Shown here: positions 329-15,078 of the stretch, piece after piece | How positions within the stretch are numbered: the first letter of the stretch is position 1 | Layout: each line of letters begins with the position of its first letter | Origin: Escherichia coli | Lineage (GTDB): Bacteria; Pseudomonadota; Gammaproteobacteria; Enterobacterales; Enterobacteriaceae | Assembly (NCBI GenBank): GCA_022969815.1 | Contig: GCA_022969815.1_4535.1 | DNA: 64,000 nt | Reading direction: 5' to 3' (one strand) | Made by a program: the position numbers and the translations under genes | The notes under the pieces: model-generated | Told to the model about the DNA's origin: nothing | What the model saw: the letters and a program-made list of their open reading frames with translations, nothing else | The model's database searches: none

Positions 329-384
329 GCGGCACCATTGCCGCCCTACGTGGTAAATATTAGCACACTGGCGATCGGTGTCAA
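329..384 (-). promoter_or_regulatory. early promoter-hairpin module E2
   Basis: -35 TTGACA (rc 379-384), 16-nt spacer, -10 TAATAT (rc 357-362), then CACGTAGGG and hairpin GCGGCA-CCAT-TGCCGC (329-344) at predicted 5' end of the 115..306 mRNA. Confidence 0.7.
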
Positions 385-390
385 TACTTT

Positions 391-777: not shown

Positions 778-989
778 GCTGTACGCTCGACAATAATAAT
801 AGTTTGCGGGATCTCGTTTTCTACTACTAACAAGGCTTTTTTCTGTGTAATAGATATTTTAACACGTTGTAACGTAGCGGTAAAGTCTTTCATTTCGTTA
901 TGTGCGGACTTGCTGCAATGCCAGATCTCAGGCTTACCGACTTGCAAACCGCGTAAAAATTCCGTTTTGCCTGTTTTGTTCGTGATCAT
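774..989 (-). CDS. hypothetical early protein, 71 aa
   Basis: track ORF 774..998 begins with GTG; in-frame ATG at 987-989 with AAGGTG SD chosen. Confidence 0.5.
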   Translation of the reverse strand: MITNKTGKTEFLRGLQVGKPEIWHCSKSAHNEMKDFTATLQRVKISITQKKALLVVENEIPQTIIIVERTA

Positions 990-999
990 TTGTTTCACC

Positions 1000-1104
1000 T
1001 TACCCGATACCGTGGGAAGATAGGATCATATTAGCCATAGTTGCAACCACTCCAACCGATAACGCCAGGCCAACTACTGCAACCGTGAAAATTTTCTCTA
1101 ACAT
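1000..1104 (-). CDS. small hydrophobic peptide, 34 aa (not in ORF track)
   Basis: ATG 1102-1104, GAGGG SD, reads MLEKIFTVAVVGLALSVGVVATMANMILSSHGIG, sits directly after promoter module E3. Confidence 0.35.
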   Translation of the reverse strand: MLEKIFTVAVVGLALSVGVVATMANMILSSHGIG

Positions 1105-1122
1105 GATGCTACCCTCATTAAT

Positions 1123-1185
1123 GGGCGTTGCCTTATTGCCCCGCCCTACAAGATGAATACTACGCGCTTACTTTGCTGTTGTCAA
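1123..1185 (-). promoter_or_regulatory. early promoter module E3 (variant leader)
   Basis: -35 TTGACA (rc 1180-1185), 17-nt spacer, -10 TAGTAT (rc 1157-1162), GC stem GGGCG...CGCCC 1123-1146; leader shares CAAGATGAATACTACG with E20. Confidence 0.55.
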
Positions 1186-1350
1186 CAACGGGCGAAAAAA
1201 CTTTTTGATCTGGCTTGCTGTTAGGCGCATATCTGCTTTGAGCGTTGCCAGGCGATAAGCTTTACCCTTGATCAGTTTATGGTGTCCGGTGCCGTTGCCG
1301 ATGATAACATCAATTTCACACAATACACGGGAATAATCAATCTTTTTCAT
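1168..1350 (-). CDS. hypothetical early protein, 60 aa
   Basis: ATG 1348-1350, module E4 upstream. Confidence 0.5.
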   Translation of the reverse strand: MKKIDYSRVLCEIDVIIGNGTGHHKLIKGKAYRLATLKADMRLTASQIKKFFRPLLTTAK

Positions 1351-1370
1351 GTTGTTACCTTTCGTGTTAT

Positions 1371-1427
1371 GGGGGCGCTTGTCGCCCCCTGTCTGATAAA
1401 GATAATCCCTTTCGGGATATCTGTCAA
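1371..1427 (-). promoter_or_regulatory. early promoter-hairpin module E4
   Basis: hairpin GGGGGCGCTTGTCGCCCCC 1371-1389; -10 TATCTT (rc 1399-1404); -35 TTGACA (rc 1422-1427). Confidence 0.55.
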
Positions 1428-1433
1428 CTATTT

Positions 1434-1619
1434 TTATTGTACGGTGTGGCGATCGCTGTATTCAGCGTAAAACTCACATCCATCGTCACGGCTATCAAGT
1501 TTAACGATATATCCACTATTCCAACGTTCAACTGATACTACCGGATAATACTTCCCGTTAAGGATATTTTTCACCAGGTCGCCTTTTACCAGTTCTTTCG
1601 TTTTCTTATAAGTAGTCAT
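1434..1619 (-). CDS. hypothetical early protein, 61 aa
   Basis: track ORF 1434..1700 runs through promoter hairpin E5; internal ATG at 1617-1619 chosen (MTTYKKTKELVKG...). Confidence 0.55.
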   Translation of the reverse strand: MTTYKKTKELVKGDLVKNILNGKYYPVVSVERWNSGYIVKLDSRDDGCEFYAEYSDRHTVQ

Positions 1620-1639
1620 GATGTTTTCTCTTCTGTTTT

Positions 1640-1700
1640 GCGGTGGACCGTTCCGCCGCCCTATGTGGTAAACTATACGCGCCAACGTTCCAGGCGTCAA
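1640..1700 (-). promoter_or_regulatory. early promoter-hairpin module E5
   Basis: hairpin 1640-1659; -10 TATAGT (rc 1672-1677); -35 TTGACG (rc 1695-1700); 17-nt spacer. Confidence 0.65.
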
Positions 1701-1730
1701 GCATATTTTTAAAATTATTTTCTACAACGT

Positions 1731-1757
1731 AAAACGCCCCAGCATAAACCAGGGCGC
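1731..1757 (-). terminator. candidate intrinsic terminator after gene 1818..2045
   Basis: minus-sense hairpin GCGCCC-loop-GGGCG followed by UUUU. Confidence 0.45.
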
Positions 1758-1817
1758 ACTAATTAAATCAGATAGGGGATTGCATTGCCTTACACCTTTT
1801 AGGCTGTTAGCTGGCGA

Positions 1818-2045
1818 TTAGTAGCGTAGGATGTTTACGGATTCATCGCGCCCTAAAATATTCTCATATCTGTTTCCCCTTCCTTCGTACCAGATGATCA
1901 CGGTGTCAGGATCAAACGGATTGTTTTCGATAGCCGTTACCTTGCAGAAGTCATAAGACGGGAACGGATAAACGCCAACCTGTAAACGCGCCCGATCTCC
2001 TGGGCGAATAGTAGCGGCACGATCTGCAATGATATTGTTATACAT
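1818..2045 (-). CDS. hypothetical early protein, 75 aa
   Basis: ATG 2043-2045; no recognisable motif. Confidence 0.55.
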   Translation of the reverse strand: MYNNIIADRAATIRPGDRARLQVGVYPFPSYDFCKVTAIENNPFDPDTVIIWYEGRGNRYENILGRDESVNILRY

Positions 2046-2169
2046 GGTGCACCCCCTTAATATTTTTCTTTTTCTTTGCTTCCAACCGTCTAAGGTTACG
2101 GCTTGACTTATTGCGCAAGGCGCTTAGATCGTCGTACCCTTTCCATGCTTGCATATCTTTCGGATTCAT
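2038..2169 (-). CDS. small basic protein, 43 aa (not in ORF track)
   Basis: ATG 2167-2169 with AAGGGGGG SD 12 nt after the stop of 2181..2459; reads MNPKDMQAWKGYDDLSALRNKSSRNLRRLEAKKKKNIKGVHHV. Confidence 0.4.
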   Translation of the reverse strand: MNPKDMQAWKGYDDLSALRNKSSRNLRRLEAKKKKNIKGVHHV

Positions 2170-2180
2170 GTTATCCCCCC

Positions 2181-2459
2181 TTAACGATTATAAACATTAT
2201 GGATGGCTTCAAAGGCAAGATGACCATAAGCCGCCAAATCGGGATTGATCCAAGCGTTATCCAACATCGTTTCAAGGACTGTGGAATCATCGTATAAAGC
2301 ATCATAGAAATCTGCACGGATGATCGTTTCAATGTCGTCCGGTGTTAGTTTGTCGTTCAACTTGCACACTGTTTCAACGTCAACACCAATTTTCCAATTT
2401 TGTAAATTAGTGGTTAACATTGTTTTCATTTCTTCGGTTGTTAATTTAACGATGGTCAT
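2181..2459 (-). CDS. hypothetical early protein, 92 aa
   Basis: ATG 2457-2459, module E6 upstream. Confidence 0.6.
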   Translation of the reverse strand: MTIVKLTTEEMKTMLTTNLQNWKIGVDVETVCKLNDKLTPDDIETIIRADFYDALYDDSTVLETMLDNAWINPDLAAYGHLAFEAIHNVYNR

Positions 2460-2483
2460 GATTTTTTCTCTCTTCTGTTAGGC

Positions 2484-2538
2484 GGGGCGCTTGTCGCCCC
2501 TATGTGATACATCTTATCAGGTTGATTCAGCTTGTCAA
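2484..2538 (-). promoter_or_regulatory. early promoter-hairpin module E6
   Basis: hairpin GGGGCGCTTGTCGCCCC 2484-2500; -10 TAAGAT (rc 2511-2516); -35 TTGACA (rc 2533-2538). Confidence 0.65.
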
Positions 2539-2539
2539 A

Positions 2540-2719
2540 CTATTTGTTAGCCGGATTATATGCCAGGACCGCGCCGCTCGCTTTCACGCTTTCCGTTTCA
2601 TAGTTGCGCAGATCGTTTTCTGTAAGATTGAGCGCGATCACTTCCTCGATCTCAATGCCAGTGGCAAGGGCGATCTCTTTAATGATGTTTGATGATCTGA
2701 TAACGTTTACTGTTTTCAT
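2540..2719 (-). CDS. hypothetical early protein, 59 aa
   Basis: internal ATG 2717-2719 with AAGGTG SD chosen over the longer track ORF 2540..2776. Confidence 0.5.
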   Translation of the reverse strand: MKTVNVIRSSNIIKEIALATGIEIEEVIALNLTENDLRNYETESVKASGAVLAYNPANK

Positions 2720-2729
2720 GGTGTGCACC

Positions 2730-2849
2730 TTATAAGATGATTGATAAGATAGTGATAACGAAAGCGATAACACCAACGGCGATCGTAGTCTTACGCCCTT
2801 CAGATACTGCCGGATTCTCTACCGTGTATTCTACTGTGTATTTGTTCAT
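2730..2849 (-). CDS. small C-terminally membrane-anchored peptide, 39 aa (not in ORF track)
   Basis: ATG 2847-2849, GAGAGG SD, reads MNKYTVEYTVENPAVSEGRKTTIAVGVIAFVITILSIIL; follows module E7. Confidence 0.35.
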   Translation of the reverse strand: MNKYTVEYTVENPAVSEGRKTTIAVGVIAFVITILSIIL

Positions 2850-2872
2850 TGTGTTATCCTCTCGCTTGCTTT

Positions 2873-2929
2873 GGGAACTATTCCCGCCGCCCTATGAATT
2901 AAATATACACTATCCCAAAATGATTGCAA
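2873..2929 (-). promoter_or_regulatory. early promoter-hairpin module E7
   Basis: hairpin GGGAACTATTCCC 2873-2885; -10 TATATT (rc 2902-2907); -35 TTGCAA 2924-2929. Confidence 0.5.
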
Positions 2930-2948
2930 GCCTTTTTCTAAATTATTT

Positions 2949-3233
2949 TTATGCAGTAAACAGACCATCATTTACAACGGCGGCGATGATCTCCCGCGCC
3001 ATTGATTCAGGAAACGGGGCGCTATAGTCCTGGCTTGTCTCGTCGCTGTCTGTTACCCAATGATAAGCCAACGAGTAAAAGCCTTTACTCCCTGTTTTCA
3101 GTGAAACGATGATCACTCGGTTAAGTCCATCGGTAAACGTTGCCGTTAATGTGCTATCATCTTGCGTCATATTGGACAAGTAAGCGGCATCATTAACCAG
3201 GGAAAACAGTAGCACCGTGTTAGCTTTAACCAT
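2949..3233 (-). CDS. hypothetical early protein, 94 aa
   Basis: track ORF start lies inside hairpin E8; in-frame ATG 3231-3233 with GAGGA SD chosen. Confidence 0.55.
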   Translation of the reverse strand: MVKANTVLLFSLVNDAAYLSNMTQDDSTLTATFTDGLNRVIIVSLKTGSKGFYSLAYHWVTDSDETSQDYSAPFPESMAREIIAAVVNDGLFTA

Positions 3234-3253
3234 GATTTGATCCTCAAACGGGC

Positions 3254-3310
3254 GCGGCACCATTGCCGCCCTACGTAATACAGTTTACCCTATTTCTTCC
3301 AAAAAGCAAG
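3254..3310 (-). promoter_or_regulatory. early promoter-hairpin module E8
   Basis: hairpin GCGGCACCATTGCCGC 3254-3269; -10 TAAACT (rc 3282-3287); -35 TTGCTT (rc 3304-3309). Confidence 0.5.
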
Positions 3311-3490
3311 TTTATTTGCAATTGGTGACAAATAACGTTTACCCGCGTAAAACAGTACAGCGACACTAACCACGGCGGCGATCTCATGCATAACCGACGG
3401 GAAACGAGTATCATAATAAGATCCAATAATAGCAATAGCGGCAACGGCTGCAACGTCGATAATGATTTTTTCTTGTTTTGCGGTGATCAT
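3290..3490 (-). CDS. small membrane protein, 66 aa
   Basis: ATG 3488-3490; hydrophobic stretch DVAAVAAIAIIGSYY and VVSVAVLFYAG. Confidence 0.55.
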   Translation of the reverse strand: MITAKQEKIIIDVAAVAAIAIIGSYYDTRFPSVMHEIAAVVSVAVLFYAGKRYLSPIANKLAFWKK

Positions 3491-3514
3491 AATATTTACC
3501 TTTTTGTATGGTGG

Positions 3515-3571
3515 GGGGAACTATTCCCCGCCTGATGTAATACAGTTTAACAGGTCCGGTTATGGTGTCAA
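3515..3571 (-). promoter_or_regulatory. early promoter-hairpin module E9
   Basis: hairpin GGGGAACTATTCCCC 3515-3529; -10 TAAACT (rc 3544-3549); -35 TTGACA (rc 3566-3571). Confidence 0.6.
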
Positions 3572-3577
3572 CCACTT

Positions 3578-3763
3578 TTAAAGATATTTTATGTTGATAA
3601 CGTTTTCCGGTTTAACCTGGTTGTGATAAGCATCAATGTAAATCAAACCATCATCGGACACGCCCAGGATCACGCCTTGCGCAATAAAACCGTATTGGTC
3701 GCGGTAACGTGCTGCCACTTTGTTCGCTGCGTTGTAGGCTGTTTTAATCTCGTTTAAGGTCAT
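3578..3763 (-). CDS. hypothetical early protein, 61 aa
   Basis: ATG 3761-3763. Confidence 0.5.
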   Translation of the reverse strand: MTLNEIKTAYNAANKVAARYRDQYGFIAQGVILGVSDDGLIYIDAYHNQVKPENVINIKYL

Positions 3764-3793
3764 GTGCTGTTATACTCTCGTTAGATATAAGAA

Positions 3794-3812
3794 AGGGCGC
3801 TATTTGCGCCCT
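3794..3812. terminator. intergenic hairpin, candidate attenuator
   Basis: AGGGCGC-TATTT-GCGCCCT with T-rich flank. Confidence 0.35.
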
Positions 3813-3821
3813 TGATTTGTT

Positions 3822-3968
3822 TTAGTCTTCCAGGTCCATCCATGCACGTTTCTCGGTGCGGTCGCGCTTAGTTTTGTTGCGCTTGTCGCCCTTGCGGATC
3901 ACTTCCTCATTCCACGCTGCGCGTGTTTTGGAGGATTGGATTTTTTCGGCGCGATTAGATGTATTCAT
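3822..3968 (-). CDS. small basic protein, 48 aa (not in ORF track)
   Basis: ATG 3966-3968, AGAGGA SD, reads MNTSNRAEKIQSSKTRAAWNEEVIRKGDKRNKTKRDRTEKRAWMDLED; follows module E10. Confidence 0.4.
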   Translation of the reverse strand: MNTSNRAEKIQSSKTRAAWNEEVIRKGDKRNKTKRDRTEKRAWMDLED

Positions 3969-3992
3969 GATGTTTCCTCTTTTTAGTTGTGA

Positions 3993-4049
3993 GCGGCACC
4001 ATTGCCGCCCTACGTGTTTAAATTTACTTTATTGCTTGATGCCTGTCAA
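3993..4049 (-). promoter_or_regulatory. early promoter-hairpin module E10
   Basis: hairpin 3993-4008; -10 TAAATT (rc 4021-4026); -35 TTGACA (rc 4044-4049); 17-nt spacer. Confidence 0.65.
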
Positions 4050-4066
4050 CTACTTTTAAAAACTTT

Positions 4067-4420
4067 TTATTCGTGGGAAAGTGTAAGGATCACCCCTGCA
4101 ATATATAACCAATAGTTTTCCCTTTCTTTCTGGATCTTGTTTTCGCTACTACGTTCGTTAATGTACCCCCAGGCTGTTAACAACCGATCTACTTCCCAAT
4201 ACTCGAAAGCTATATTAATATTTGACGGCAATCCTTGTAACCATGATGCTATTGCTCTGATAATATTATGATCGTAACGTTTTTGATTATCGGTATACCA
4301 ATACTCGGATTTAAAACAGCGCATCAATTCCGCGATCTTCTCTTTATCTTCTGTGATGCCATACTCGCTATAATCAATTGAGGCCAGAATATAAAGTTTA
4401 ATTGCATTCTGTGCTTTCAT
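4067..4420 (-). CDS. hypothetical early protein, 117 aa
   Basis: ATG 4418-4420, module E11 upstream. Confidence 0.65.
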   Translation of the reverse strand: MKAQNAIKLYILASIDYSEYGITEDKEKIAELMRCFKSEYWYTDNQKRYDHNIIRAIASWLQGLPSNINIAFEYWEVDRLLTAWGYINERSSENKIQKERENYWLYIAGVILTLSHE

Positions 4421-4441
4421 GTTGTCTCTCTTCTGTTGTGA

Positions 4442-4497
4442 GCGGCACCATTGCCGCCCTATGTGTTACATCTTACCGGATTTTTAAAACTTGTCAA
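4442..4497 (-). promoter_or_regulatory. early promoter-hairpin module E11
   Basis: hairpin 4442-4457; -10 TAAGAT (rc 4470-4475); -35 TTGACA (rc 4492-4497). Confidence 0.65.
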
Positions 4498-4718
4498 TCA
4501 TTTTTTACTATCATTTGATACCCTGTTTCCAGGTTAGTAAACACCGTGATCCCGTCCTGGCGTTCACTCATAAGCAAGCAAGGCGCTAACATCCTTCCTA
4601 CTTCCTTGCACTCGTTATAAGCGGCGGTAATGTCTCCCGCTGCCTTGTCTTCTGTGGTGAATGTATCGTTCACGTAAACTTGACCAGCGACAACGGCGAC
4701 AATAGCGAAAGTGATCAT
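4494..4718 (-). CDS. hypothetical protein with hydrophobic N-terminus, 74 aa
   Basis: internal ATG 4716-4718 (MITFAIVAVVAGQVYV...) chosen over the longer track ORF 4494..4790. Confidence 0.5.
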   Translation of the reverse strand: MITFAIVAVVAGQVYVNDTFTTEDKAAGDITAAYNECKEVGRMLAPCLLMSERQDGITVFTNLETGYQMIVKND

Positions 4719-4796
4719 AATGTTTTTCTCTTTATGTGTTTCATTTCGATTAGTTGATAATACGGCAATTCGCAGATTAGTCTTTAGCAATTCATG

Positions 4797-5015
4797 CTAT
4801 TTACTCACAACAATATCGAAAACAAATTTTTCTTTGTTGTCTAAGCTCACGTATCCGATTCGACCACGCAATCCGTGAGTAGTGCCGTATTCGTAACCAT
4901 CCAGACCTTTAACCTTCCAATCCATGCCCATTAAAACCGCATTATATTTCTGACCAACTACAAAAGCGCCACCAGTTGATTCAATGCAAATAACTTTAAT
5001 TTTACGGATTGCCAT
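4797..5015 (-). CDS. hypothetical early protein, 72 aa
   Basis: ATG 5013-5015. Confidence 0.55.
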   Translation of the reverse strand: MAIRKIKVICIESTGGAFVVGQKYNAVLMGMDWKVKGLDGYEYGTTHGLRGRIGYVSLDNKEKFVFDIVVSK

Positions 5016-5054
5016 TTTCTTTCTCTCTCTGTGGTAATTGGTTTCTCTTCTCTA

Positions 5055-5090
5055 TAACGCCCATTATAGGGCGTTATAACGAAAAGTCAA
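5055..5090 (-). promoter_or_regulatory. early promoter with palindrome over the -10 region
   Basis: -35 TTGACT (rc 5085-5090), 16-nt spacer, -10 TATAAT (rc 5063-5068), palindrome TAACGCCC-ATTA-TAGGGCGTTA 5055-5076. Confidence 0.6.
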
Positions 5091-5091
5091 A

Positions 5092-5259
5092 TTATTTTTT
5101 ACGGCTTAAGGTGCCCAGGTTATCAGCGTGGCGCAAACCAGGGAAGATCCACGCGCCTGATGCATCTTTCACAGGGGCTTTAAGCGTAGCGCCCAGGTTG
5201 GCGGCGTTAACTTTACGGGCAACGTTGCGAGCGGCTTCACGGGTAGTAAAAGTGATCAT
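5092..5259 (-). CDS. small protein, 55 aa (not in ORF track)
   Basis: ATG 5257-5259, reads MITFTTREAARNVARKVNAANLGATLKAPVKDASGAWIFPGLRHADNLGTLSRKK; follows module E12. Confidence 0.4.
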   Translation of the reverse strand: MITFTTREAARNVARKVNAANLGATLKAPVKDASGAWIFPGLRHADNLGTLSRKK

Positions 5260-5283
5260 GATGTTTTCCTCTTCTCTTTGTTA

Positions 5284-5345
5284 GGCGGTGGACCATTCCG
5301 CCGCCTTGATGTAATACAGTTTACTTTATTTTGTTAAGATTGCAA
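5284..5345 (-). promoter_or_regulatory. early promoter-hairpin module E12
   Basis: hairpin 5284-5305; -10 TAAACT (rc 5318-5323); -35 TTGCAA 5340-5345. Confidence 0.55.
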
Positions 5346-5351
5346 GTAGTT

Positions 5352-5567
5352 TTATGAAATAATTGTCAAAGTAAAATCATAATCTTTTGACAGTTTATAT
5401 TGCACCTTGTTACCGTATATGTCACCTTTACGTAAAGATCCACGGATACCGATAACATCCTTCACGTCTTTTAAATTTTTCACGCCTGTAATGTCTTTGT
5501 TGAAATACTCGTCATCTGAAAATAAAACTTGACTTGCATTTTTTAACAGTGTGCGGATATTAGCCAT
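5352..5567 (-). CDS. hypothetical early protein, 71 aa
   Basis: ATG 5565-5567. Confidence 0.55.
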   Translation of the reverse strand: MANIRTLLKNASQVLFSDDEYFNKDITGVKNLKDVKDVIGIRGSLRKGDIYGNKVQYKLSKDYDFTLTIIS

Positions 5568-5591
5568 TGAGATAATCTCTCTTTGTTGTGA

Positions 5592-5647
5592 GCGGCACCA
5601 TTGCCGCCCTACGTAATACAGTTTACTCTTTTTCTTTCCGGTGTCAA
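5592..5647 (-). promoter_or_regulatory. early promoter-hairpin module E13
   Basis: hairpin 5592-5607; -10 TAAACT (rc 5620-5625); -35 TTGACA (rc 5642-5647). Confidence 0.65.
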
Positions 5648-5656
5648 CAATCTTTT

Positions 5657-5884
5657 TCAGATTAATTCATCCAGGCATAACAGGCGATCAACGTTGAGAT
5701 CGGTCAGGCTGATGGTTGGCACCTGATAGGATTCGATGTACTCGACGCTCGCATATTCCCCAAAATTAGCAATAGCCCACTTATTCAAGATCTCACATAC
5801 ATCATTAATCTTTTTATTTGTTACAACTGCAATAACCTGGGAAGTGCCAACGGTGCCGGATACGCGAACAATATTGATAGCCAT
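5657..5884 (-). CDS. hypothetical early protein, 75 aa
   Basis: internal ATG 5882-5884 chosen; the longer track ORF runs into hairpin E14. Confidence 0.55.
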   Translation of the reverse strand: MAINIVRVSGTVGTSQVIAVVTNKKINDVCEILNKWAIANFGEYASVEYIESYQVPTISLTDLNVDRLLCLDELI

Positions 5885-5906
5885 GATTTTTCTCTCTTCG
5901 TTAGGC

Positions 5907-5961
5907 GGGGCGCTTGTCGCCCCTATGTGATACATCTTACACTAATTTTAAACGTTGTCAA
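5907..5961 (-). promoter_or_regulatory. early promoter-hairpin module E14
   Basis: hairpin 5907-5923; -10 TAAGAT (rc 5934-5939); -35 TTGACA (rc 5956-5961). Confidence 0.65.
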
Positions 5962-6056
5962 ATTATTTTCTATTTCTTCCGTAATAGCCCAATTTATGAT
6001 CTAAGCTAAAACGTTTTGTTAGATAGGTTGAACGATGTTTCATTTTTATGTCTCCT

Positions 6057-6296
6057 TTACATTCCAACCATAGCGGCGCGGATTGCAGTAGTGCTATATT
6101 TGAATCCGTCCGGTGTTTTATCTTGTCCAGTCTGTTCTAAAAATAACATCATATGACGGGCCGCATCATTGCGATTAGTGTTGTCGTTAATAAAATCCAG
6201 GGCCAACCGATACAATCCCTCATCGTTATTAATCCACAGGCTTACATTCCAATGAGTTTTGTTTTTGTGACCGTTGTACATTTTAGATTTAGCCAT
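6057..6296 (-). CDS. hypothetical early protein, 79 aa
   Basis: ATG 6294-6296. Confidence 0.55.
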   Translation of the reverse strand: MAKSKMYNGHKNKTHWNVSLWINNDEGLYRLALDFINDNTNRNDAARHMMLFLEQTGQDKTPDGFKYSTTAIRAAMVGM

Positions 6297-6317
6297 GATT
6301 TTTCTCTCTTTTTGTTA

Positions 6318-6379
6318 GGCGGTGGACCATTCCGCCGCCTTGATGTAATACAGTTTACTCTTTTTCTTCGTGCTGTCAA
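6318..6379 (-). promoter_or_regulatory. early promoter-hairpin module E15
   Basis: hairpin 6318-6339; -10 TAAACT (rc 6352-6357); -35 TTGACA (rc 6374-6379). Confidence 0.65.
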
Positions 6380-6385
6380 TGCTTT

Positions 6386-6751
6386 TTATAGATCTTTTTT
6401 ACGTTTAACATCGCTTGCATGACTGTATACAGTGATCCCATTGTCACGGCAAAAACGGGAAAGATACGCACCGCGTGAAAATTCCTTGCCCTCAAGGTTG
6501 ATAACCTTGCTAAATTCTTCCAGGGCGACGGTATCGAAATGATCACCATAACCATATTGAAACGGCACGTTAACCACTTCAACCAATTTACCGCAGATCT
6601 CAACGTCTACACTTAAAGAAAAATATGTATTACCGTAGGACTGTTGAAACCAGCGACGGGCGCTAATATGCACCGCCTCAATGCTGGATAATTCAATTTT
6701 AGCCGTGTTAGCCAGGGTAGCATAAGCGGAAACATTGATATTAATAGCCAT
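6386..6751 (-). CDS. hypothetical early protein, 121 aa
   Basis: ATG 6749-6751. Confidence 0.6.
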   Translation of the reverse strand: MAININVSAYATLANTAKIELSSIEAVHISARRWFQQSYGNTYFSLSVDVEICGKLVEVVNVPFQYGYGDHFDTVALEEFSKVINLEGKEFSRGAYLSRFCRDNGITVYSHASDVKRKKDL

Positions 6752-6777
6752 GATGATAATCTCTCTTTTTGGTTAGT

Positions 6778-6829
6778 GGGAAGTATTCCCGATAAAAGTT
6801 ATTATGCTTATACTATCACTCATTGTCAA
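6778..6829 (-). promoter_or_regulatory. early promoter-hairpin module E15b
   Basis: hairpin GGGAAGTATTCCC 6778-6790; -10 CATAAT (rc 6801-6806); -35 TTGACA (rc 6824-6829); 17-nt spacer. Confidence 0.6.
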
Positions 6830-6848
6830 TAGTATAAGACTAAAACTT

Positions 6849-7028
6849 TTAACGATAATCGTTATAGGCTTTATTGACCTGGCGAATGTAACATTCGAAA
6901 GCAAGATCAATGTATTCGTATTCACGCACATAATCACCATAGGTCACTACATACATTTTTAAAGTTTCCTCATAAGCCAGGAGGATCGAATCTAAACCTA
7001 TAATCTCAGTTTTTGCAATGATAGCCAT
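6849..7028 (-). CDS. small protein, 59 aa (not in ORF track)
   Basis: ATG 7026-7028, reads MAIIAKTEIIGLDSILLAYEETLKMYVVTYGDYVREYEYIDLAFECYIRQVNKAYNDYR; follows module E16. Confidence 0.4.
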   Translation of the reverse strand: MAIIAKTEIIGLDSILLAYEETLKMYVVTYGDYVREYEYIDLAFECYIRQVNKAYNDYR

Positions 7029-7049
7029 GATGTTAACCTTTTTATTGTT

Positions 7050-7106
7050 GGCGGCACCATTGCCGCCCTACGTGATAAACTATAACAGAATTTTAAACAG
7101 TGTCAA
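7050..7106 (-). promoter_or_regulatory. early promoter-hairpin module E16
   Basis: hairpin 7050-7067; -10 TATAGT (rc 7079-7084); -35 TTGACA (rc 7101-7106). Confidence 0.65.
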
Positions 7107-7116
7107 ACGTTTTTTC

Positions 7117-7362
7117 TTAGTTTGCGAAATATGGCGCGGCGGCTGATGCCGTTAAGCTCCAAGTGATTTGACTATCGATCAAGTATTCTTCATTCTTGAT
7201 CCGCACGGTATCAATCGAGAAGTTACTAAAAGGCTTACTTTTAATTTTACGAATAACCGTTACACGGCGATCACCTTTCATCTCTTTTAACTGAATCCAG
7301 GCGTAACCTTTTTCATTGACAAAAATTTCATTGTGGTTGGTGATAGATGATAGGTGTTTCAT
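7117..7362 (-). CDS. hypothetical early protein, 81 aa
   Basis: internal ATG 7360-7362 chosen; the longer track ORF runs into hairpin E17. Confidence 0.55.
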   Translation of the reverse strand: MKHLSSITNHNEIFVNEKGYAWIQLKEMKGDRRVTVIRKIKSKPFSNFSIDTVRIKNEEYLIDSQITWSLTASAAAPYFAN

Positions 7363-7383
7363 GATTTCTCTCTTCTGTTTTGA

Positions 7384-7443
7384 GCGGTGGACCATTCCGC
7401 CGCCCTATGTGTTACATCTTACTACTTTTTTAAACATTGTCAA
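7384..7443 (-). promoter_or_regulatory. early promoter-hairpin module E17
   Basis: hairpin 7384-7403; -10 TAAGAT (rc 7416-7421); -35 TTGACA (rc 7438-7443). Confidence 0.65.
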
Positions 7444-7451
7444 GGATATTT

Positions 7452-7733
7452 TTAACTATATGATCCACATCGTTCGCAGTAGTGATCATCGTCGTCATCT
7501 GCTACCTGGCTGATAAAGTGATCAACCTTTGATTTCAGGTTTTTATAGTCGTTTTCGACTTCCTGTAGTCGTCGCTGGTAATATTCCAGGGCTTGCACAT
7601 ATGCCGCTTGTTCGGTTTTCGCTTGCATTGCTAAATTCATGCCGCGCGTTTCATCATACAGCCAATACCCATCATTGCACCCGCTAATTGATAGTGTAGG
7701 GCTTAGTTTTTCGTGGCTGATTGCCTTGCTCAT
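7452..7733 (-). CDS. hypothetical early protein with C-terminal CxxC, 93 aa
   Basis: track start is GTG; in-frame ATG 7731-7733 with AAGGTGG SD chosen; coiled-coil-like middle. Confidence 0.55.
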   Translation of the reverse strand: MSKAISHEKLSPTLSISGCNDGYWLYDETRGMNLAMQAKTEQAAYVQALEYYQRRLQEVENDYKNLKSKVDHFISQVADDDDDHYCERCGSYS

Positions 7734-7743
7734 AGTGTCCACC

Positions 7744-7935
7744 TTACAAAATGACTACGTTATCTTTTTCGTGCAGTGTGGCGGTAATGTTGCGCCCTTT
7801 GTCGCACATTAGCGAGATCTTGCGGTGATGCGGTGGCACTTTCTCGATGTGCGCTACTGTCATTGTGATCCGGTGCAATTCTACTTTGTCACCTGCTTTC
7901 AATGTTGCTACGTTGCCAGTGATATTTTTAAACAT
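7744..7935 (-). CDS. hypothetical early protein, 63 aa
   Basis: in-frame ATG 7933-7935 with AAGGGG SD chosen over the longer track ORF. Confidence 0.5.
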   Translation of the reverse strand: MFKNITGNVATLKAGDKVELHRITMTVAHIEKVPPHHRKISLMCDKGRNITATLHEKDNVVIL

Positions 7936-7945
7936 GGTGCGCCCC

Positions 7946-8056
7946 TTACTTGAAAATGATTGTTGTGATAACTGCCACGGTGATCCAAAATGGAACAACC
8001 AAGATAATAGCGTTAATAGTTCCAACTGTCAAACTATTTTCTTTCTTGATCATCAT
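7946..8056 (-). CDS. small membrane peptide, 36 aa
   Basis: track ORF 7946..8176 starts with GTG inside hairpin E18; ATG 8054-8056 with AAGGA SD gives MMIKKENSLTVGTINAIILVVPFWITVAVITTIIFK. Confidence 0.3.
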   Translation of the reverse strand: MMIKKENSLTVGTINAIILVVPFWITVAVITTIIFK

Positions 8057-8169
8057 GTTTTCCTTACAGTGTCCAAAGAATGATTTCAAGTGCAGCACGG
8101 AAACCAGGAATAAAATTGATTGCAAAAAACAGGGAAGTAGTAGACATTTTTCTATCCTTTCAGTTGTGA

Positions 8170-8225
8170 GCGGCACCGTTGCCGCCCTATGAGTTAACTA
8201 TAAGTGATCACGTTTTACCTGTCAA
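8170..8225 (-). promoter_or_regulatory. early promoter-hairpin module E18
   Basis: hairpin GCGGCACCGTTGCCGC 8170-8185; -10 TTATAG (rc 8198-8203); -35 TTGACA (rc 8220-8225). Confidence 0.55.
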
Positions 8226-8779
8226 CCTAAATCATCAAAATAAAGATAATTTTTTTCGGCTTCTTTCTTCTCTTCCTGCGTTGCCTCAAAGACTGGGAGG
8301 AAGTGATCAAAGGCTATGCACTCAACCGCGTGATCGTCTTCCTCTTCCTGGTCTTCCTCCTGGGCTATGGCTGCAATTTTGGCCAATTTCCTTTCAGCCT
8401 GGATAAGCTTACCATCTAATACGCTTTTTGCAGTACTGTACGCCGTCCAGGTGATGCGCTTACTTTCGAGCGCGGCATCAAGCGCCGCTATCTTGCTGGG
8501 GTATTCATCCAGGACACGAAAAGCCGGATCTACCTTGTACAGCGGATTATCTTTCGCGCCGTCGCTATCATCTGCGGCGCTTGCAATGTCAGCGTTACCA
8601 TTCGCCAGCCAACCAGGGCGATCGCTGCGTGTTTTGGTATTCCCATGACTACGCGCCGATCTGTTGCCTACTTGCTCGCCACTATAACCAGGAGCGTGAT
8701 CGATCATGTCATCCGGTACAATACGCGGATCATTAGCGTCATGTTTTACCCAGGACTGGATCACATATTCGCGCCCCAT
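8222..8779 (-). CDS. hypothetical early protein with acidic patches, 185 aa
   Basis: ATG 8777-8779, AAGGGG SD; acidic run QEEDQEEEDD. Confidence 0.6.
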   Translation of the reverse strand: MGREYVIQSWVKHDANDPRIVPDDMIDHAPGYSGEQVGNRSARSHGNTKTRSDRPGWLANGNADIASAADDSDGAKDNPLYKVDPAFRVLDEYPSKIAALDAALESKRITWTAYSTAKSVLDGKLIQAERKLAKIAAIAQEEDQEEEDDHAVECIAFDHFLPVFEATQEEKKEAEKNYLYFDDLG

Positions 8780-9039
8780 TATACACCCCTTTTAACAATC
8801 ATTTCACACACAAAAAATAAACTGGCGGAATCACGGCAAGGGTAGAAAGATGTGCGATAATCTCTCACCCCTGCTTTTATGATCTCCGTGGTTTTACCTG
8901 ATAGCACATTGTAAATAGTGTAACTTGTCGGACTGTTTTTATATACCTTGCCAGGGTAGATCATAACATAACGAGCAAGGTTATAAAATTCCTCGTTACG
9001 AAAAGCTATGATCTTCCCGCATACCTTAAGAAAATGCAC
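8779..9039 (-). CDS. hypothetical early protein, 86 aa (GTG start)
   Basis: GTG 9037-9039 with AGGGGG SD; alternative ATG at 8962-8964 lacks an SD. Confidence 0.4.
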   Translation of the reverse strand: MHFLKVCGKIIAFRNEEFYNLARYVMIYPGKVYKNSPTSYTIYNVLSGKTTEIIKAGVRDYRTSFYPCRDSASLFFVCEMIVKRGV

Positions 9040-9048
9040 GTTAGCCCC

Positions 9049-9321
9049 CTACAGCAAAAAGTTTACTTGTCTTGCTGTTAATGTAGTATCAACCATCTTC
9101 GGGCTTTTATAATCCACAAAGCGCGCGGTTTTTTCAATAGCGAAACCGAGATAATCTTGCTTGTTGAAATTACATTCTTTCTTAAATGTCTCCCGTGCAA
9201 TGGCGATCGCTGCGTCCAGGGATAAACGCCCGTCAATATTGATATTAGCGAAAGATCCGCCACCGCTCATAGGTTTACCAGTTGTGCCCGTTACGATCAT
9301 TGTTGCGCTATATGATGCCAT
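9049..9321 (-). CDS. hypothetical early protein, 90 aa
   Basis: internal ATG 9319-9321 chosen; the longer track ORF runs into hairpin E19. Confidence 0.55.
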   Translation of the reverse strand: MASYSATMIVTGTTGKPMSGGGSFANINIDGRLSLDAAIAIARETFKKECNFNKQDYLGFAIEKTARFVDYKSPKMVDTTLTARQVNFLL

Positions 9322-9345
9322 GATGATAATCTCTCTTAGTTGTGA

Positions 9346-9405
9346 GCGGTGGACCATTCCGCCGCTCTACGTGATACATCTTATCAGGTTGTTGCCTGTT
9401 GTCAA
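9346..9405 (-). promoter_or_regulatory. early promoter-hairpin module E19
   Basis: hairpin 9346-9365; -10 TAAGAT (rc 9378-9383); -35 TTGACA (rc 9400-9405). Confidence 0.65.
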
Positions 9406-10149: not shown

Positions 10150-10151
10150 TC

Positions 10152-10180
10152 TTGACAAGCCCAGGGATCGGGCTTATACT
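10152..10180 (+). promoter_or_regulatory. strong sigma70-type promoter reading into the non-coding region
   Basis: -35 TTGACA 10152-10157, 17-nt spacer, -10 TATACT 10175-10180; no ORF with a start codon downstream for more than 100 nt. Confidence 0.7.
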
Positions 10181-10186
10181 GTTTTA

Positions 10187-10285
10187 CATACAGAAGAGGA
10201 AGCGCCACCCCCACGGCGTAAAGGCGGGGCTAACATACCAGGGGCACCGGTTGGAAGGTCGATCGCCGGGAGGCTGGGCGCTATA
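10187..10285 (+). ncRNA. candidate structured GC-rich transcript
   Basis: about 65% GC with complementary runs (GCGCCACCCCC, GGCGGGG, CCGG-N-CCGG) downstream of the 10152 promoter; 3' end undefined. Confidence 0.3.
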
Positions 10286-10400
10286 TATTTGTAAAGAAAT
10301 GTAAAGATAAAATAATCGCTTGCTTTCCTGGCTGGATCTGTTATTCTTATTACATGGCGAGGGGACACGGGAGCGCGAGATAATCACCGGACCTGCCCGT

Positions 10401-10640
10401 CATTCTCTAAATGAGAATGATTATCATTTACCTTATTGAATAAAAATCAATCTTATTTGGATAGTTGAATGAGAATCAATCTCATTCGCAAGGTGAGAAT
10501 AAATCTCATTTACGCTATTGAATGCGAATCATTCGTATTTACCATGTTGAATGAGAATCATTATCATTTCCGATGCGAAATGAGAATCATTATCATTCTC
10601 ATTCGTATTTCGATTTTAAGTGAGAATAATTCTCATTTCG
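10401..10640. repeat. array of about 7 inverted repeats on GAGAAT/ATTCTC and AATGAG/CTCATT half-sites
   Basis: CATTCTC-TAAAT-GAGAATG (10401-10419), AATGAGAAT-N7-ATTCTCATT, GAGAATAATTCTC (10622-10634) and others. Confidence 0.7.
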
Positions 10641-10653
10641 GTAATTTTCACGC

Positions 10654-10711
10654 AAACTTTAGAATTTGCTTTTCAACTTTCACTTTTGTAAAAGCAAAAA
10701 AACTTTAAATA
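10654..10711. repeat. 58-bp direct repeat, copy R1
   Basis: AAACTTTAGAATTTG...TTTTGTAAA...TTTAAATA, about 80% identical to R2. Confidence 0.7.
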
Positions 10712-10757
10712 CCTGGTGCGCGCGACTTTTTTAAAAATTTTTCTCGGTTTTTTTGTT

Positions 10758-10787
10758 TTGCAATCTGGTCCACCCATTTGAGATAAT
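10758..10787 (+). promoter_or_regulatory. extended -10 promoter
   Basis: -35 TTGCAA 10758-10763, 18-nt spacer, TGaGATAAT 10779-10787; predicted start at the beginning of R2. Confidence 0.45.
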
Positions 10788-10793
10788 GTGTGT

Positions 10794-10851
10794 AAACTTT
10801 AGAATTTGGTTTTGGATTCTCGTTTTTGTAAACTCATAAAAAGTTTAAATA
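10794..10851. repeat. 58-bp direct repeat, copy R2
   Basis: second copy of the R1 unit. Confidence 0.7.
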
Positions 10852-10888
10852 ATTGTAGGGATTTTTGAGATAGTTTGCTTGTAAGATT

Positions 10889-10897
10889 TGAGATAAT
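10889..10897 (+). promoter_or_regulatory. second copy of the extended -10 element ATTTGAGATAAT
   Basis: TGaGATAAT 10889-10897, weak -35; predicted start near 10904. Confidence 0.35.
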
Positions 10898-10903
10898 CTT
10901 TCC

Positions 10904-11006
10904 TGAAGATGCTACGCAGCCTACAACCTACCTGAATGCTCGTCTAACGAGGTTAACTCTAAAAGATGAGTGTTGGTGTAGCTAAAGAGAAAAGGCTCTC
11001 TACGGA
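10904..11006 (+). ncRNA. candidate small RNA, about 100 nt
   Basis: bounded by the extended -10 at 10889-10897 and a terminator; 10-bp inner stem CCTACAACCT/AGGTTGTAGG. Confidence 0.3.
10971..11006. terminator. bidirectional intrinsic terminator
   Basis: AAAA-GGCTC-loop-GAGCC-TTTTT; ends the leftward NADAR operon and the candidate rightward small RNA. Confidence 0.55.
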
Positions 11007-11090
11007 GGTTGTAGGAGCCTTTTTCTGTGGCACAAAGTTGACGTATTCTTTTTAAAAACGAATTTTTTCAAAATATCACGAATATCGCCT

Positions 11091-12194: not shown

Positions 12195-12212
12195 ATGCCC
12201 CTTGCGGGGCAT
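12195..12212 (-). terminator. intergenic hairpin, candidate attenuator
   Basis: ATGCCCC-TTGC-GGGGCAT between the ATPase gene and the next gene; weak U tract. Confidence 0.4.
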
Positions 12213-12217
12213 CTTTA

Positions 12218-13357
12218 TTAGAACACACTGCTCAGTGTTGCTGATCGTGTAGTTGTTGGCTCCAGAACTACGCGGAACGTATCTCCAGGTTTATCGCTCA
12301 CTACTACAATCTTACCACCCTCGATCAGGTCACACTTCAAACCTTCGGCAGTAGCTTTCAGGTCGATGCGTGGATCACCATCATCATCCAGGATGACGTA
12401 GCTGCTATCTTCGAGAGGCTCCAGTTCTTCGTCCTTCACTGCTTCCAGGTAGATGTTCAGTTCACATGCACCCGACAAGAACTTGGTAGGAGTGAACTCA
12501 TGCCAGTTGTTGACCCAGTTAGGCTTGATAGCTTTACCGTTGACAACAATAGAGCTAATCGTCCAGCGTGCATCGTTACCCAGAGAGATACCCATCATCT
12601 CCAGACAGGTCTTGAACGTCATTTTCGGATAGAAGTTTAACTCTTCTACGATCCCTTGAATAACATCGAAAGACAGTTCAGTGCTAACATCCCACAAACG
12701 TTGGAAGCTTTCAACATGTTTGCGATTCTTCAGATTCTTATCCAGGTAGTCCAGCATAGTTTCAATAGACAGTTTGTCGTAGTTGAAGCTATAGAAGATA
12801 CGGCTCGGACGGTTGACGAAGTATTCCGAGATGTATCCGCTGTTCTTTGTCAGCATGAACAGTTTGTTACCGCTACCTGTGCCATCCAGCAGAGTCAGCA
12901 GTGCTTCCTGATCTTCCTTCTTGGAATACACTTTGTCGAACTCATCGAACAGTACTACTGCGCGTTCAGAGATTTTACTCATGAACTCCAGGAAGTTGGC
13001 ATCAGAATATGGCTGCGTTACCAGAATAGTTGGGATTCCCAGGTCTTCCGCTTCCAACAGAGTGTTACTGATCAGTTTTGCCAGCATTGTCTTGCCACTG
13101 CCTTTTGTACCCGACAACAGGACACCTGTGTTCTTACCTTCTTTACTACGACGAGCGAAGGTACGGATAACGTGGGCTGCACGTTCTTTGGTTTCCCCGT
13201 ACAGGCGATCAGGAATCGTGAACTTATCAGCACGACTAAGAGAGTAGTTACCATGTGGATCACAATTGACAGTCCAAACGCCAGCGGGGAGTTTATCAAC
13301 CTCTACACCGAAGTCTTTATTAACAATAGCAACATCCCCGTACACTGTGTATTTCAT
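12218..13357 (-). CDS. P-loop NTPase (AAA-like), 379 aa
   Basis: Walker A GTKGSGKT, Walker B VVLFDEFD; ATG 13355-13357, GAGGAG SD. Confidence 0.75.
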   Translation of the reverse strand: MKYTVYGDVAIVNKDFGVEVDKLPAGVWTVNCDPHGNYSLSRADKFTIPDRLYGETKERAAHVIRTFARRSKEGKNTGVLLSGTKGSGKTMLAKLISNTLLEAEDLGIPTILVTQPYSDANFLEFMSKISERAVVLFDEFDKVYSKKEDQEALLTLLDGTGSGNKLFMLTKNSGYISEYFVNRPSRIFYSFNYDKLSIETMLDYLDKNLKNRKHVESFQRLWDVSTELSFDVIQGIVEELNFYPKMTFKTCLEMMGISLGNDARWTISSIVVNGKAIKPNWVNNWHEFTPTKFLSGACELNIYLEAVKDEELEPLEDSSYVILDDDGDPRIDLKATAEGLKCDLIEGGKIVVVSDKPGDTFRVVLEPTTTRSATLSSVF

Positions 13358-13382
13358 TTAATCTCTCCTCTTCTGTTGGAAT

Positions 13383-13417
13383 AGACGTATTATCTCTTGT
13401 CTAATACGTCTTGTCAA
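13383..13417 (-). promoter_or_regulatory. promoter with operator-like palindrome for the ATPase gene
   Basis: -35 TTGACA (rc 13412-13417), 17-nt spacer, -10 GATAAT (rc 13389-13394); 10-bp inverted repeat AGACGTATTA/TAATACGTCT 13383-13411. Confidence 0.55.
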
Positions 13418-13425
13418 TACTTATT

Positions 13426-13785
13426 TTAGATCCCTTCGCCTTTAGTGATGATAGCTTCCATCACCACAGCTTTCTTCTTCTGTTGAACATCTTGACGGAT
13501 CAGGAGGCTACCGCCTTGATCATCCTTATACTGCTTCATGATGATGAAGTTGTTGCCACACACAGCGCCGATAGCCACGTATGGGCGATTAGAGTTATCC
13601 ACATCCACAGATGGGGTTACATCCGTGCAAGTAAAGAACTTGCCATCAGGATCAGTATAAGCAAAGTGGCCTTTAGCAGTTACTGCAACTTCTCCAGTGC
13701 TTGTGGACTGTGCAGCCACAAACGGTGCAGCAGATGCTACGAAACTTGCAGACAGCAGGGCTACAGCTAAAATAATCTTTTTCAT
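13426..13785 (-). CDS. secreted or periplasmic protein, 119 aa
   Basis: N-terminal signal peptide MKKIILAVALLSASFVASAAP; ATG 13783-13785. Confidence 0.6.
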   Translation of the reverse strand: MKKIILAVALLSASFVASAAPFVAAQSTSTGEVAVTAKGHFAYTDPDGKFFTCTDVTPSVDVDNSNRPYVAIGAVCGNNFIIMKQYKDDQGGSLLIRQDVQQKKKAVVMEAIITKGEGI

Positions 13786-13797
13786 GGTGATCTCCTC

Positions 13798-13959
13798 TTA
13801 TTCCAACAACATACACAATGCAGCTACAACCAAGAACAGAGTAGCCACGCTTAAAGCGATAAACATTCCTAATTGAGAATGAAATTCGCCTATGATAGGT
13901 GCAGACAACGCACTTAGCAAACAACCTGTCAAACTTGATTTGATAATAAGATCTAACAT
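13798..13959 (-). CDS. small membrane protein, 53 aa (not in ORF track)
   Basis: ATG 13957-13959, AGGAGG SD; reads MLDLIIKSSLTGCLLSALSAPIIGEFHSQLGMFIALSVATLFLVVAALCMLLE; replaces the overlapping track ORF 13673..13924. Confidence 0.45.
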   Translation of the reverse strand: MLDLIIKSSLTGCLLSALSAPIIGEFHSQLGMFIALSVATLFLVVAALCMLLE

Positions 13960-14566: not shown

Positions 14567-14743
14567 TTAACTAATTAGTTGAACTGCCTTGCAGATGTAA
14601 ATCCAAACAGGACTAAGCATAAGAGCTATACCGAATGTACAAGCCCACTTAATTCCCATATTCTCTATTAGAGACATGATTAAGCCAACAGCATTAATAA
14701 CCAGATAAATCCCTAAGAAAACCACTGTAAAAAATTCAGACAT
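14567..14743 (-). CDS. small membrane protein, 58 aa
   Basis: track start is GTG; ATG 14741-14743 chosen; two hydrophobic segments. Confidence 0.5.
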   Translation of the reverse strand: MSEFFTVVFLGIYLVINAVGLIMSLIENMGIKWACTFGIALMLSPVWIYICKAVQLIS

Positions 14744-14745
14744 AG

Positions 14746-15078
14746 TTAGCTCCACAAGTTATGAAAGTATTCAGCAAACAGGCAACGACCTTCCATTTTA
14801 TCTGTTTTGGTCATAACTGATTCAGGTTTAAAACCTTCGATCATTTGATCAATAATGGATAACCACTCCACTGTAGCTTCCCGCTCCTGCTCTTCTGTTA
14901 GTTTACGGTAATCTGACACATATTTAGCCCAAATCTTAGATGGGATAAGGATATCCCCTCGTTCTACAATACGCGCCTTGAACGCACACAGTCCAGCACA
15001 GATAATCGCGGAGAACGTATCGTCCAGGTCTTGCAGATCTTCTACGTCAAACTGTAATTCATCATGGATAAGTTTCAT
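14746..15078 (-). CDS. hypothetical protein, 110 aa
   Basis: ATG 15076-15078, GAGGAG SD. Confidence 0.55.
   Translation of the reverse strand: MKLIHDELQFDVEDLQDLDDTFSAIICAGLCAFKARIVERGDILIPSKIWAKYVSDYRKLTEEQEREATVEWLSIIDQMIEGFKPESVMTKTDKMEGRCLFAEYFHNLWS

Follow-up and report, generated by a model that had tools for sequence, protein, structure and literature searches.

A perfect palindrome over the promoter of a coliphage AAA ATPase gene: probably a promoter/stem-loop cassette of the PeSL type

Is a perfect palindrome across the promoter of a phage gene the binding site of a repressor, or is it something else? The question is raised by a stretch of 64,000 nucleotides filed under Escherichia coli (GenBank assembly GCA_022969815.1, contig GCA_022969815.1_4535.1), the whole of which is here called the window. 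It contains a gene for a 379-amino-acid (aa) P-loop ATPase (12218..13357, minus strand, ATG start; from the open reading frame list and the sequence), and the promoter of this gene is overlapped by a 10-bp inverted repeat. An original prediction had taken the repeat to imply repression of the gene by a dimeric regulator. The window is from a Phapecoctavirus-type coliphage, with 98.6% identity around the locus to the Escherichia phages phiWec188 and phiWec190, which are myoviruses of ~150 kb from the subfamily Stephanstirmvirinae and in which the neighbours of the ATPase gene are all annotated as hypothetical. Our analysis leads to a different answer: the 68-bp intergenic region 5' of the ATPase gene is probably a promoter-early stem-loop (PeSL)-type cassette, as described for T4-like phages, that drives the expression of a classical AAA ATPase. 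The feature is real but ordinary, most likely a promoter/stem-loop cassette of a known kind.

The promoter has the -35 box TTGACA (13417-13412, minus strand) and the -10 box GATAAT (13394-13389, minus strand) separated by a 17-nt spacer. It matches the consensus in 11 of 12 positions and is thus a near-consensus sigma-70 promoter, as had been proposed. On its 5' side lies the AT-rich tract TAAAATAAGTA (13418..13428, minus strand), which forms the 5' edge of the cassette and includes the TAA stop codon of the upstream gene (13426-13428, in TCTAAAATAAGTA, immediately 5' of the -35 box). The -35 box itself is embedded in AAGTATTGACA, a sequence common to other cassettes of the window. On the 3' side follows the Shine-Dalgarno (SD) sequence GAGGAG (13365..13370, minus strand), 7 nt 5' of the ATG and in the motif AACAGAAGAG (13368-13377). 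The inverted repeat (13383..13411, minus strand) is composed of the arms AGACGTATTA (13411-13402) and TAATACGTCT (13392-13383), which are 100% complementary over their 10 bp and enclose a loop of 9 nt. It takes up the whole spacer as well as four bases of the -10 box and terminates at about position -1. From the usual 7-nt distance to the -10 box the transcription start is predicted to be near 13382, one base past the right arm. Folded as RNA the palindrome gives a hairpin of -10.2 kcal/mol. This hairpin does not have the properties of an intrinsic terminator: only four of its ten pairs are G:C, the loop has 9 nt, the sequence that follows is AUUCCAACAG without a U-tract, and a terminator scan was negative.

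How probable is such an arrangement by chance? Perfect inverted-repeat loci with arms of at least 10 bp and loops of 3–20 nt were found five times in the window as compared to 1.19 ± 1.18 times in 200 dinucleotide shuffles of it. Of these loci, three overlap a core promoter, where 0.005–0.05 would be expected, and the palindrome-on-promoter arrangement can therefore not be ascribed to chance. The complete palindrome of the ATPase promoter is present in a single copy in the window (0 expected), and its half-site, with up to one mismatch, in four copies (3.7 expected), two of which are the arms themselves. The two other perfect inverted repeats of at least 10 bp are located at 48112-48139 and 58464-58490; their sequences are the terminator-like AAAAGGGAACC/GGTTCCCTTTT and AAGATAGATCA/TGATCTATCTT.

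The ATPase promoter is one of many of its kind. A scan for strong promoters revealed ~17 near-identical promoter cassettes, located from 384 to 9405 on the minus strand, plus one on the plus strand at 28701. Every one of them precedes a small gene of unknown function. The cassettes consist of an A-rich tract, the promoter TTGACA-N16/17-TAAGAT (or TAAACT, TATAGT), a conserved GC hairpin right where the transcript is predicted to begin (e.g., GGGCGGCAATGGTGCCGCTC and variants, -14.4 kcal/mol) and a purine-rich SD sequence. Both flanks of the ATPase cassette are common to this family well above chance: AAGTATTGACA, with one mismatch allowed, is present nine times in the window (1.9 expected), and AACAGAAGAG six times (0.21 expected), five of the six being in cassette 5' untranslated regions. 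The ATPase cassette therefore belongs to the repeated early-promoter family of this phage. The sole difference is that a palindrome over the spacer and the -10 box replaces the GC hairpin. Indeed, the stem-loop has no fixed place within the family: it lies past the -10 box in most cassettes, over the spacer and the -10 box at promoters 13417 and 5090, and on the -35 box at promoters 6829 and 8032. A search of the window against Rfam at gathering thresholds gave no match.

The palindromes at the sister promoters are the more informative ones. At promoter 5090 the palindrome TATAACGCCC-TATAAT-GGGCGTTATA (5053-5078, minus strand) has arms of 10 bp and a 6-nt loop that is the -10 box; at promoter 6829 the 10-bp arms of CTTATACTAT-TGACAATGAGTG-ATAGTATAAG (6807-6838, minus strand) enclose the -35 box in a 12-nt loop; and at promoter 8032 arms of 7 bp are found around the -35 box (~8010-8038, minus strand). 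All three are unrelated to the ATPase palindrome. In related phages the pairs of the first two have changed together. For example, an A:T pair of the 6829 palindrome is G:C in phage Nernie and G:T in VivaForever and A110a, and in the 5090 palindrome a change from A:T to G:C, plus T:G, is seen in Schickermooser, TSP7_1, and PNJ1809-36. Klebsiella phage KP2025 shows several paired changes in the 5090 palindrome, though its -10 box is degraded to TATCCT. The mismatches in the sister palindromes, three altogether, are all G:T on the sense strand. Because the changes are compensatory or leave G:T pairs on the sense strand, we conclude that the sister palindromes are probably hairpins in the sense RNA or in single-stranded DNA; an evolution of this kind does not fit three different dimeric repressors. 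Homology between related phages also breaks at these cassettes. At promoter 5090 different groups of phages have in common either the upstream gene alone, up to window position 5092 or 5039, or the downstream gene alone, from 5033 or 5028, and at promoter 6829 the breaks are at ~6847, 6792-6782, and 6762-6754.

The ATPase cassette, too, is a mosaic boundary. DNA similarity to phAPEC8-type phages stops at window position 13358, which is the ATG of the ATPase gene, and restarts at ~13964, so that the cassette forms the edge of a ~600-bp block that is swapped relative to these phages. Besides the cassette the block contains two small genes (13426..13959, minus strand) for a secreted 119-aa protein, 39% identical to gp154 of ESCO5, and a 53-aa membrane protein, and does not code for a DNA-binding protein. 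Among the products of the five nearest genes DNA-binding Pfam matches were not found. In phages of the phAPEC8/ESCO5/ASO2A type, to whose counterpart the ATPase is 80% identical, the palindrome is absent and there is no intergenic region at all, the ATG of the ATPase gene overlapping the upstream stop codon. In Justusliebigvirus alia, which also lacks the palindrome, the gap between the upstream gene and the ATPase gene is 12 bp. The 73-nt promoter region was retrieved from only six phage records and, in addition, from one IMG/VR contig and one metagenome contig, thus from eight sequences with one copy each. The promoter-palindrome block is identical in all eight, while four nearby positions vary; the few substitutions are located in the AT-rich tract and between the SD sequence and the ATG. 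Across 65 related IMG/VR loci there was no conserved promoter or palindrome 5' of the ATPase-family gene. In Agrobacterium phage Atu_ph07 (L082, ~1395-1435) a 14-bp perfect inverted repeat was observed 5' of the ATPase homologue, with an AAGGAG SD sequence in its right arm; as a hairpin it may sequester the ribosome-binding site.

Cassettes of very similar design have been described in phages RB49 and phi1 under the name PeSL (Arbiol et al., 2010; PMC2839356) and later in further T4-like phages, those named being RB49, phi1, PST, and nt-1 (Comeau et al., 2014; PMC4122927). A PeSL starts with an AT-rich region that contains the stop codon of the upstream gene; a sigma-70-like promoter comes next, and an SD sequence and ATG make up the 3' end. 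Five subclasses are distinguished by the site of the stem-loop, which is between the -35 box and the -10 box, over either box, 5' of the -35 box, or just 3' of the -10 box, and G:T pairs are present in the stems (PMC2839356). A cloned wild-type PeSL is a very strong promoter, and the stem-loop of PeSL211/210, when placed between a strong promoter and lacZ, cut expression about as much as a strong terminator (PMC2839356). In T4-like phages PeSLs keep small early genes insulated. They were proposed, with evidence from mini-circles, to be joints at which recombination shuffles small genes (PMC2839356).

The ATPase cassette has the complete PeSL layout, from the stop codon within the AT-rich tract through the sigma-70 promoter and the stem-loop to the SD sequence and the ATG. 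The placement of its stem-loop fits two of the five published subclasses. The resemblance extends to further features: the cassettes are repeated many times in a region whose small genes have no known function, their stems contain G:T pairs, and breaks of homology between related phages fall at them. There are also differences. The host lineage is here Stephanstirmvirinae (Phapecoctavirus) rather than a T4-like phage, which is why we file the cassette as PeSL-like; most cassettes of the window have a conserved GC hairpin past the -10 box; and the stem at the ATPase promoter is AT-rich rather than poly-G/poly-C. It should be noted that the rV5 genome paper, which lists sigma-70 promoters, does not mention stem-loop cassettes, and that we did not find a description of a PeSL-type element in the Stephanstirmvirinae lineage in the literature. 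The finding suggests that PeSL-type cassettes are not confined to T4-like phages.

Several points weigh against this interpretation. So far the T4-like phages are the only ones from which PeSLs have been described, and the stem-loop of a PeSL is often a G/C tract. The hairpin at the ATPase promoter (-10.2 kcal/mol) is AT-rich, has a 9-nt loop, and lacks a U-tract, and efficient intrinsic termination is therefore doubtful. A search for sequence variants of the cassette returned identical copies only, which provides no covariation for the ATPase palindrome, and the argument for a hairpin consequently rests on the sister cassettes. Finally, palindromes overlapping the -35 or -10 box are in the classical position of repressor operators. 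With these points taken into account we still consider a PeSL-type cassette in front of a classical AAA ATPase gene to be the probable answer.

What would such a cassette do? The ATPase gene is followed, 6 nt past its stop codon, by a GC-rich, terminator-like hairpin, ATGCCCC-GCAA-GGGGCAT (12195..12212, minus strand, -15.3 kcal/mol), the equivalent of which carries the annotation "rho-independent terminator" in ASO2A. The ATPase gene of this clade stands as a single-gene unit between its own promoter cassette and this terminator-like hairpin. Host RNA polymerase would start at ~13382, past the right arm, and the ATPase mRNA would be made without the palindrome hairpin. The hairpin would be present only in read-through transcripts that start at the promoters near 16251 and 15966 of the upstream operon, where, by analogy with PeSLs, it may attenuate read-through or mark and protect the 3' end of the upstream transcripts. 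The palindrome hairpin and the GC hairpin past the stop codon together would make the ATPase gene a transcriptionally insulated unit. The cassettes of the family may in addition serve as recombination joints, which would explain why the cassette borders a replaced 600-bp module in this clade and why the genes are coupled directly in others. They appear to give the variable early region its organization in coliphages of the Stephanstirmvirinae, phages that are used in collections for phage therapy. In having its own promoter and a terminator-like hairpin within a longer co-oriented operon the ATPase gene resembles the phage "morons". Unlike a moron, it is a conserved family gene in a syntenic position, and only the promoter cassette and the two upstream genes are exchanged.

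A first alternative is that the palindrome has no present function and is a by-product of the creation or movement of the cassette or of the 600-bp module, e.g., by hairpin-mediated template switching or by recombination at the joint, and that it persists because the clade is young. We regard this as rather unlikely. The eight sequences available are near-identical and offer no variation that could reveal selection, and the palindrome is located at a mosaic junction and has a weak hairpin without a U-tract, all of which speaks for a by-product. However, equivalent palindromes at two other promoters are kept across genera by compensatory substitutions, and the strong enrichment on core promoters argues for selection on this class of palindromes as a whole.

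The second alternative is the operator itself: a dimeric phage or host regulator would bind both 10-bp arms across the spacer and the -10 box and repress the ATPase promoter at some stage of infection. In its favour, a perfect palindrome placed exactly over a core promoter is very unlikely to arise by chance, the palindrome is invariant in all eight copies next to four varying positions, and the hairpin is poor as an intrinsic terminator. In its place across the spacer and the -10 box the palindrome resembles repressor operators that overlap core promoters, e.g., lambda OR/OL or the LexA box. But there is one site per genome, other half-sites are not above chance, and the half-sites have a centre-to-centre spacing of 19 bp, not the usual one for a simple helix-turn-helix dimer. 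The site is missing from most relatives that carry the 80%-identical ATPase and from sister clades, and the acquired ~600-bp module came without a regulator gene. The sister palindromes, with other spacings, would each need a regulator of their own, and yet they evolve by compensatory and G:T changes as hairpins do. In 5,426 E. coli genomes a similar site was not found, the power of this test with a 49-nt query being low. An operator is for these reasons distinctly unlikely, and the inference of a dimeric repressor is not supported, although the inverted repeat on which it was based is as perfect as it had been described. The arms (AGACGT..) resemble the met-box of MetJ, AGACGTCT, but this reading was rejected since MetJ requires repeats in an 8-bp tandem register, which these are not. 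With the false lead of an operator removed, a perfect promoter palindrome in phages of this kind should not be taken as an operator by default.

The gene behind the putative PeSL-type cassette codes for an ATPase whose motifs are intact, in agreement with what had been predicted: Walker A GTKGSGKT comprises residues 83-90 and Walker B VVLFDEFD residues 134-141. The hidden Markov model and structure classification that had been recommended as a check gave a consistent picture. Pfam PF00004 (AAA) matches with 37.6 bits (cut-off 21.2; E 3.5e-9) and is the sole family clearly above threshold, PF00910 being borderline; PHROG 2376 ("ATPase") matches over the whole length. Sequence and profile searches of the PDB yielded only members of the classical clade, namely Cdc48/p97, NVL, Rix7, AFG2, and Msp1. 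In 62 homologues the residues G83, K85, G86, G88, K89, T90, D138, E139, T170, N172, R183, P184, and R186 are invariant. N172 is sensor-1; as read from the sequence, the arginine pair R183/R186 of RPSR belongs to the second region of homology, and the lid motif SFDVI is found at the position of the sensor-2 arginine of other clades. The pore-loop-1 position reads P-Y-S-D rather than aromatic-hydrophobic-Gly, and Y117 is the majority residue there without being invariant.

A structure predicted by AlphaFold from a single sequence had a predicted local distance difference test score (pLDDT) of 35 and was unusable; the model used was obtained with the 62-homologue alignment and has a mean pLDDT of 87.3. 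In it an N-terminal beta domain (~1-50) and a linker helix are predicted to precede the AAA core, whose lid has four helices (~75-255), and the chain to end with a beta-rich domain (~260-370). The closest structures are those of mitochondrial Bcs1, of the bacterial Trip13 associated with cyclic-oligonucleotide-based anti-phage signalling systems (CBASS), and of NSF-D2, and full-length matches were only to uncharacterised phage ATPases. The identity to any solved protein is at most 20%. The Pfam, PDB profile, and structure matches and the RPSR motif together identify the protein as a classical-clade AAA protein. With Bcs1, Trip13, and NSF-D2 it shares the AAA core, Walker A and B, the sensor-1 asparagine, and the RPSR arginine pair; unlike theirs, its N- and C-terminal beta domains are phage-specific. 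It differs from Bcs1 in giving no match to the Pfam family BCS1_N, in having a soluble N-terminal beta domain in the model, and, by inspection, in showing no evident N-terminal transmembrane anchor. It also differs from the Trip13/Pch2 proteins of CBASS defence systems, since PADLOC gave only weak matches to unrelated P-loop proteins (the best being mad8, E 1e-4); in PADLOC and NCBIfam scans all matches were P-loop matches below threshold. When the C-terminal domain alone was searched against 1.8 billion representatives, only close relatives were found plus two multi-stretch matches, which are probably due to repeats or low complexity.

The family is widespread in large phages. Members are found in Stephanstirmvirinae, in jumbo phages of Erwinia, Yersinia, and Cronobacter, in phages of Aeromonas and Proteus, in Herelleviridae, in myoviruses of Lactococcus and Lactobacillus, and in crAss-like phages, and the gene mostly sits among small early genes of unknown function. 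Nothing found here yet sets the ATPase gene of the window apart. Justusliebigvirus has a second, more distant paralogue with ~46–47% identity, which aligns over ~residues 3-274 and is without the C-terminal domain. Such pairs are present on the same IMG/VR contigs (L034/L023 and L037/L020); in Phapecoctavirus the gene is single-copy.

As to its function, the best-supported reading is that the phage makes the protein early in infection and that it is a protein remodeller which forms rings and is driven by ATP. The enzyme probably forms rings and would, at the expense of ATP, remodel or unfold a host or phage protein, with the target being recognized through the N- and C-terminal beta domains. 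The literature on phAPEC8, Phapecoctavirus, and Stephanstirmvirinae contained nothing relevant on the function of the ATPase or on transcriptomes. Two findings weigh against a protein remodeller: there is weak similarity to DnaC, Hda, and clamp-loader families, and in a crAss-like phage the gene lies inside a replication/recombination module. A role in DNA replication or recombination as helicase loader, initiator, or clamp-loader-like AAA+ protein, maybe acting at an iteron-like array 1.6 kb downstream (10409-10639), to which these two findings would point, is nevertheless improbable, because apart from the borderline PF00910 match PF00004 alone is clearly above threshold, the PDB profile matches are exclusively to protein remodellers of the classical clade, the best structures are Bcs1, Trip13, and NSF, the RPSR motif, both arginines of which are invariant, is that clade's second region of homology, and the gene is in most phages located among small early genes rather than replication genes. 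More specifically, one may imagine a Bcs1/Trip13-like ring remodeller that is made right after infection from an insulated, exchangeable cassette and dismantles a host complex, e.g., an anti-phage defence assembly, where the C-terminal beta domain sets the target and the cassette frees expression from the upstream operon; this picture is speculative and unlikely to be correct. The ATPase is a member of a large uncharacterised family of classical AAA proteins present in many big phages, and identification of its target would be useful.

The neighbours of the ATPase gene had been described as small secreted and membrane proteins, and inspection bears this out. The 119-aa product (13426-13785) begins with MKKIILAVALLSASFVASAAP, which by eye is a typical Sec signal peptide, and the 53-aa (13798-13959) and 62-aa (14567-14755) products are hydrophobic. 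On the other side, just past the terminator hairpin of the ATPase gene (between window 12172 and 12218), many relatives have an inserted gene of 1.0–1.5 kb (at 2163-3176 in L002, 2667-3875 in L003, 978-2438 in L004, and 3703-5100 in L005). The annotations of ESCO5 and alia call its product an endonuclease, those of phiWec179 and ASO2A a hypothetical protein. The site beyond the hairpin is probably an insertion site for homing endonucleases. The window, phiWec188, and phiWec190 are without this endonuclease-type insertion. A record labelled Pseudomonas phage PsgM04F (OR584014.1) and several labelled "Campylobacter phage" (MG0656xx) show 85–96% DNA identity to these coliphages, and the hosts stated for them look doubtful.

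The array at 10409-10639 mentioned above lies in a non-coding gap (10150-11090) and is made up of eight palindromic units of ~22 bp with the sequence RAATGAGAAT-N2-4-ATTCTCATTY, mostly 29 bp apart. Close to it a direct repeat of 58 nt has its copies at 10654 and 10794, and the motif TTTGAGATAAT is present three times. At the equivalent position in phage alia "repeat_region" features are annotated. The array looks like an iteron or operator array and thus like an origin or a regulatory site. Together with the array of promoter cassettes it is among the more unusual items of this neighbourhood.

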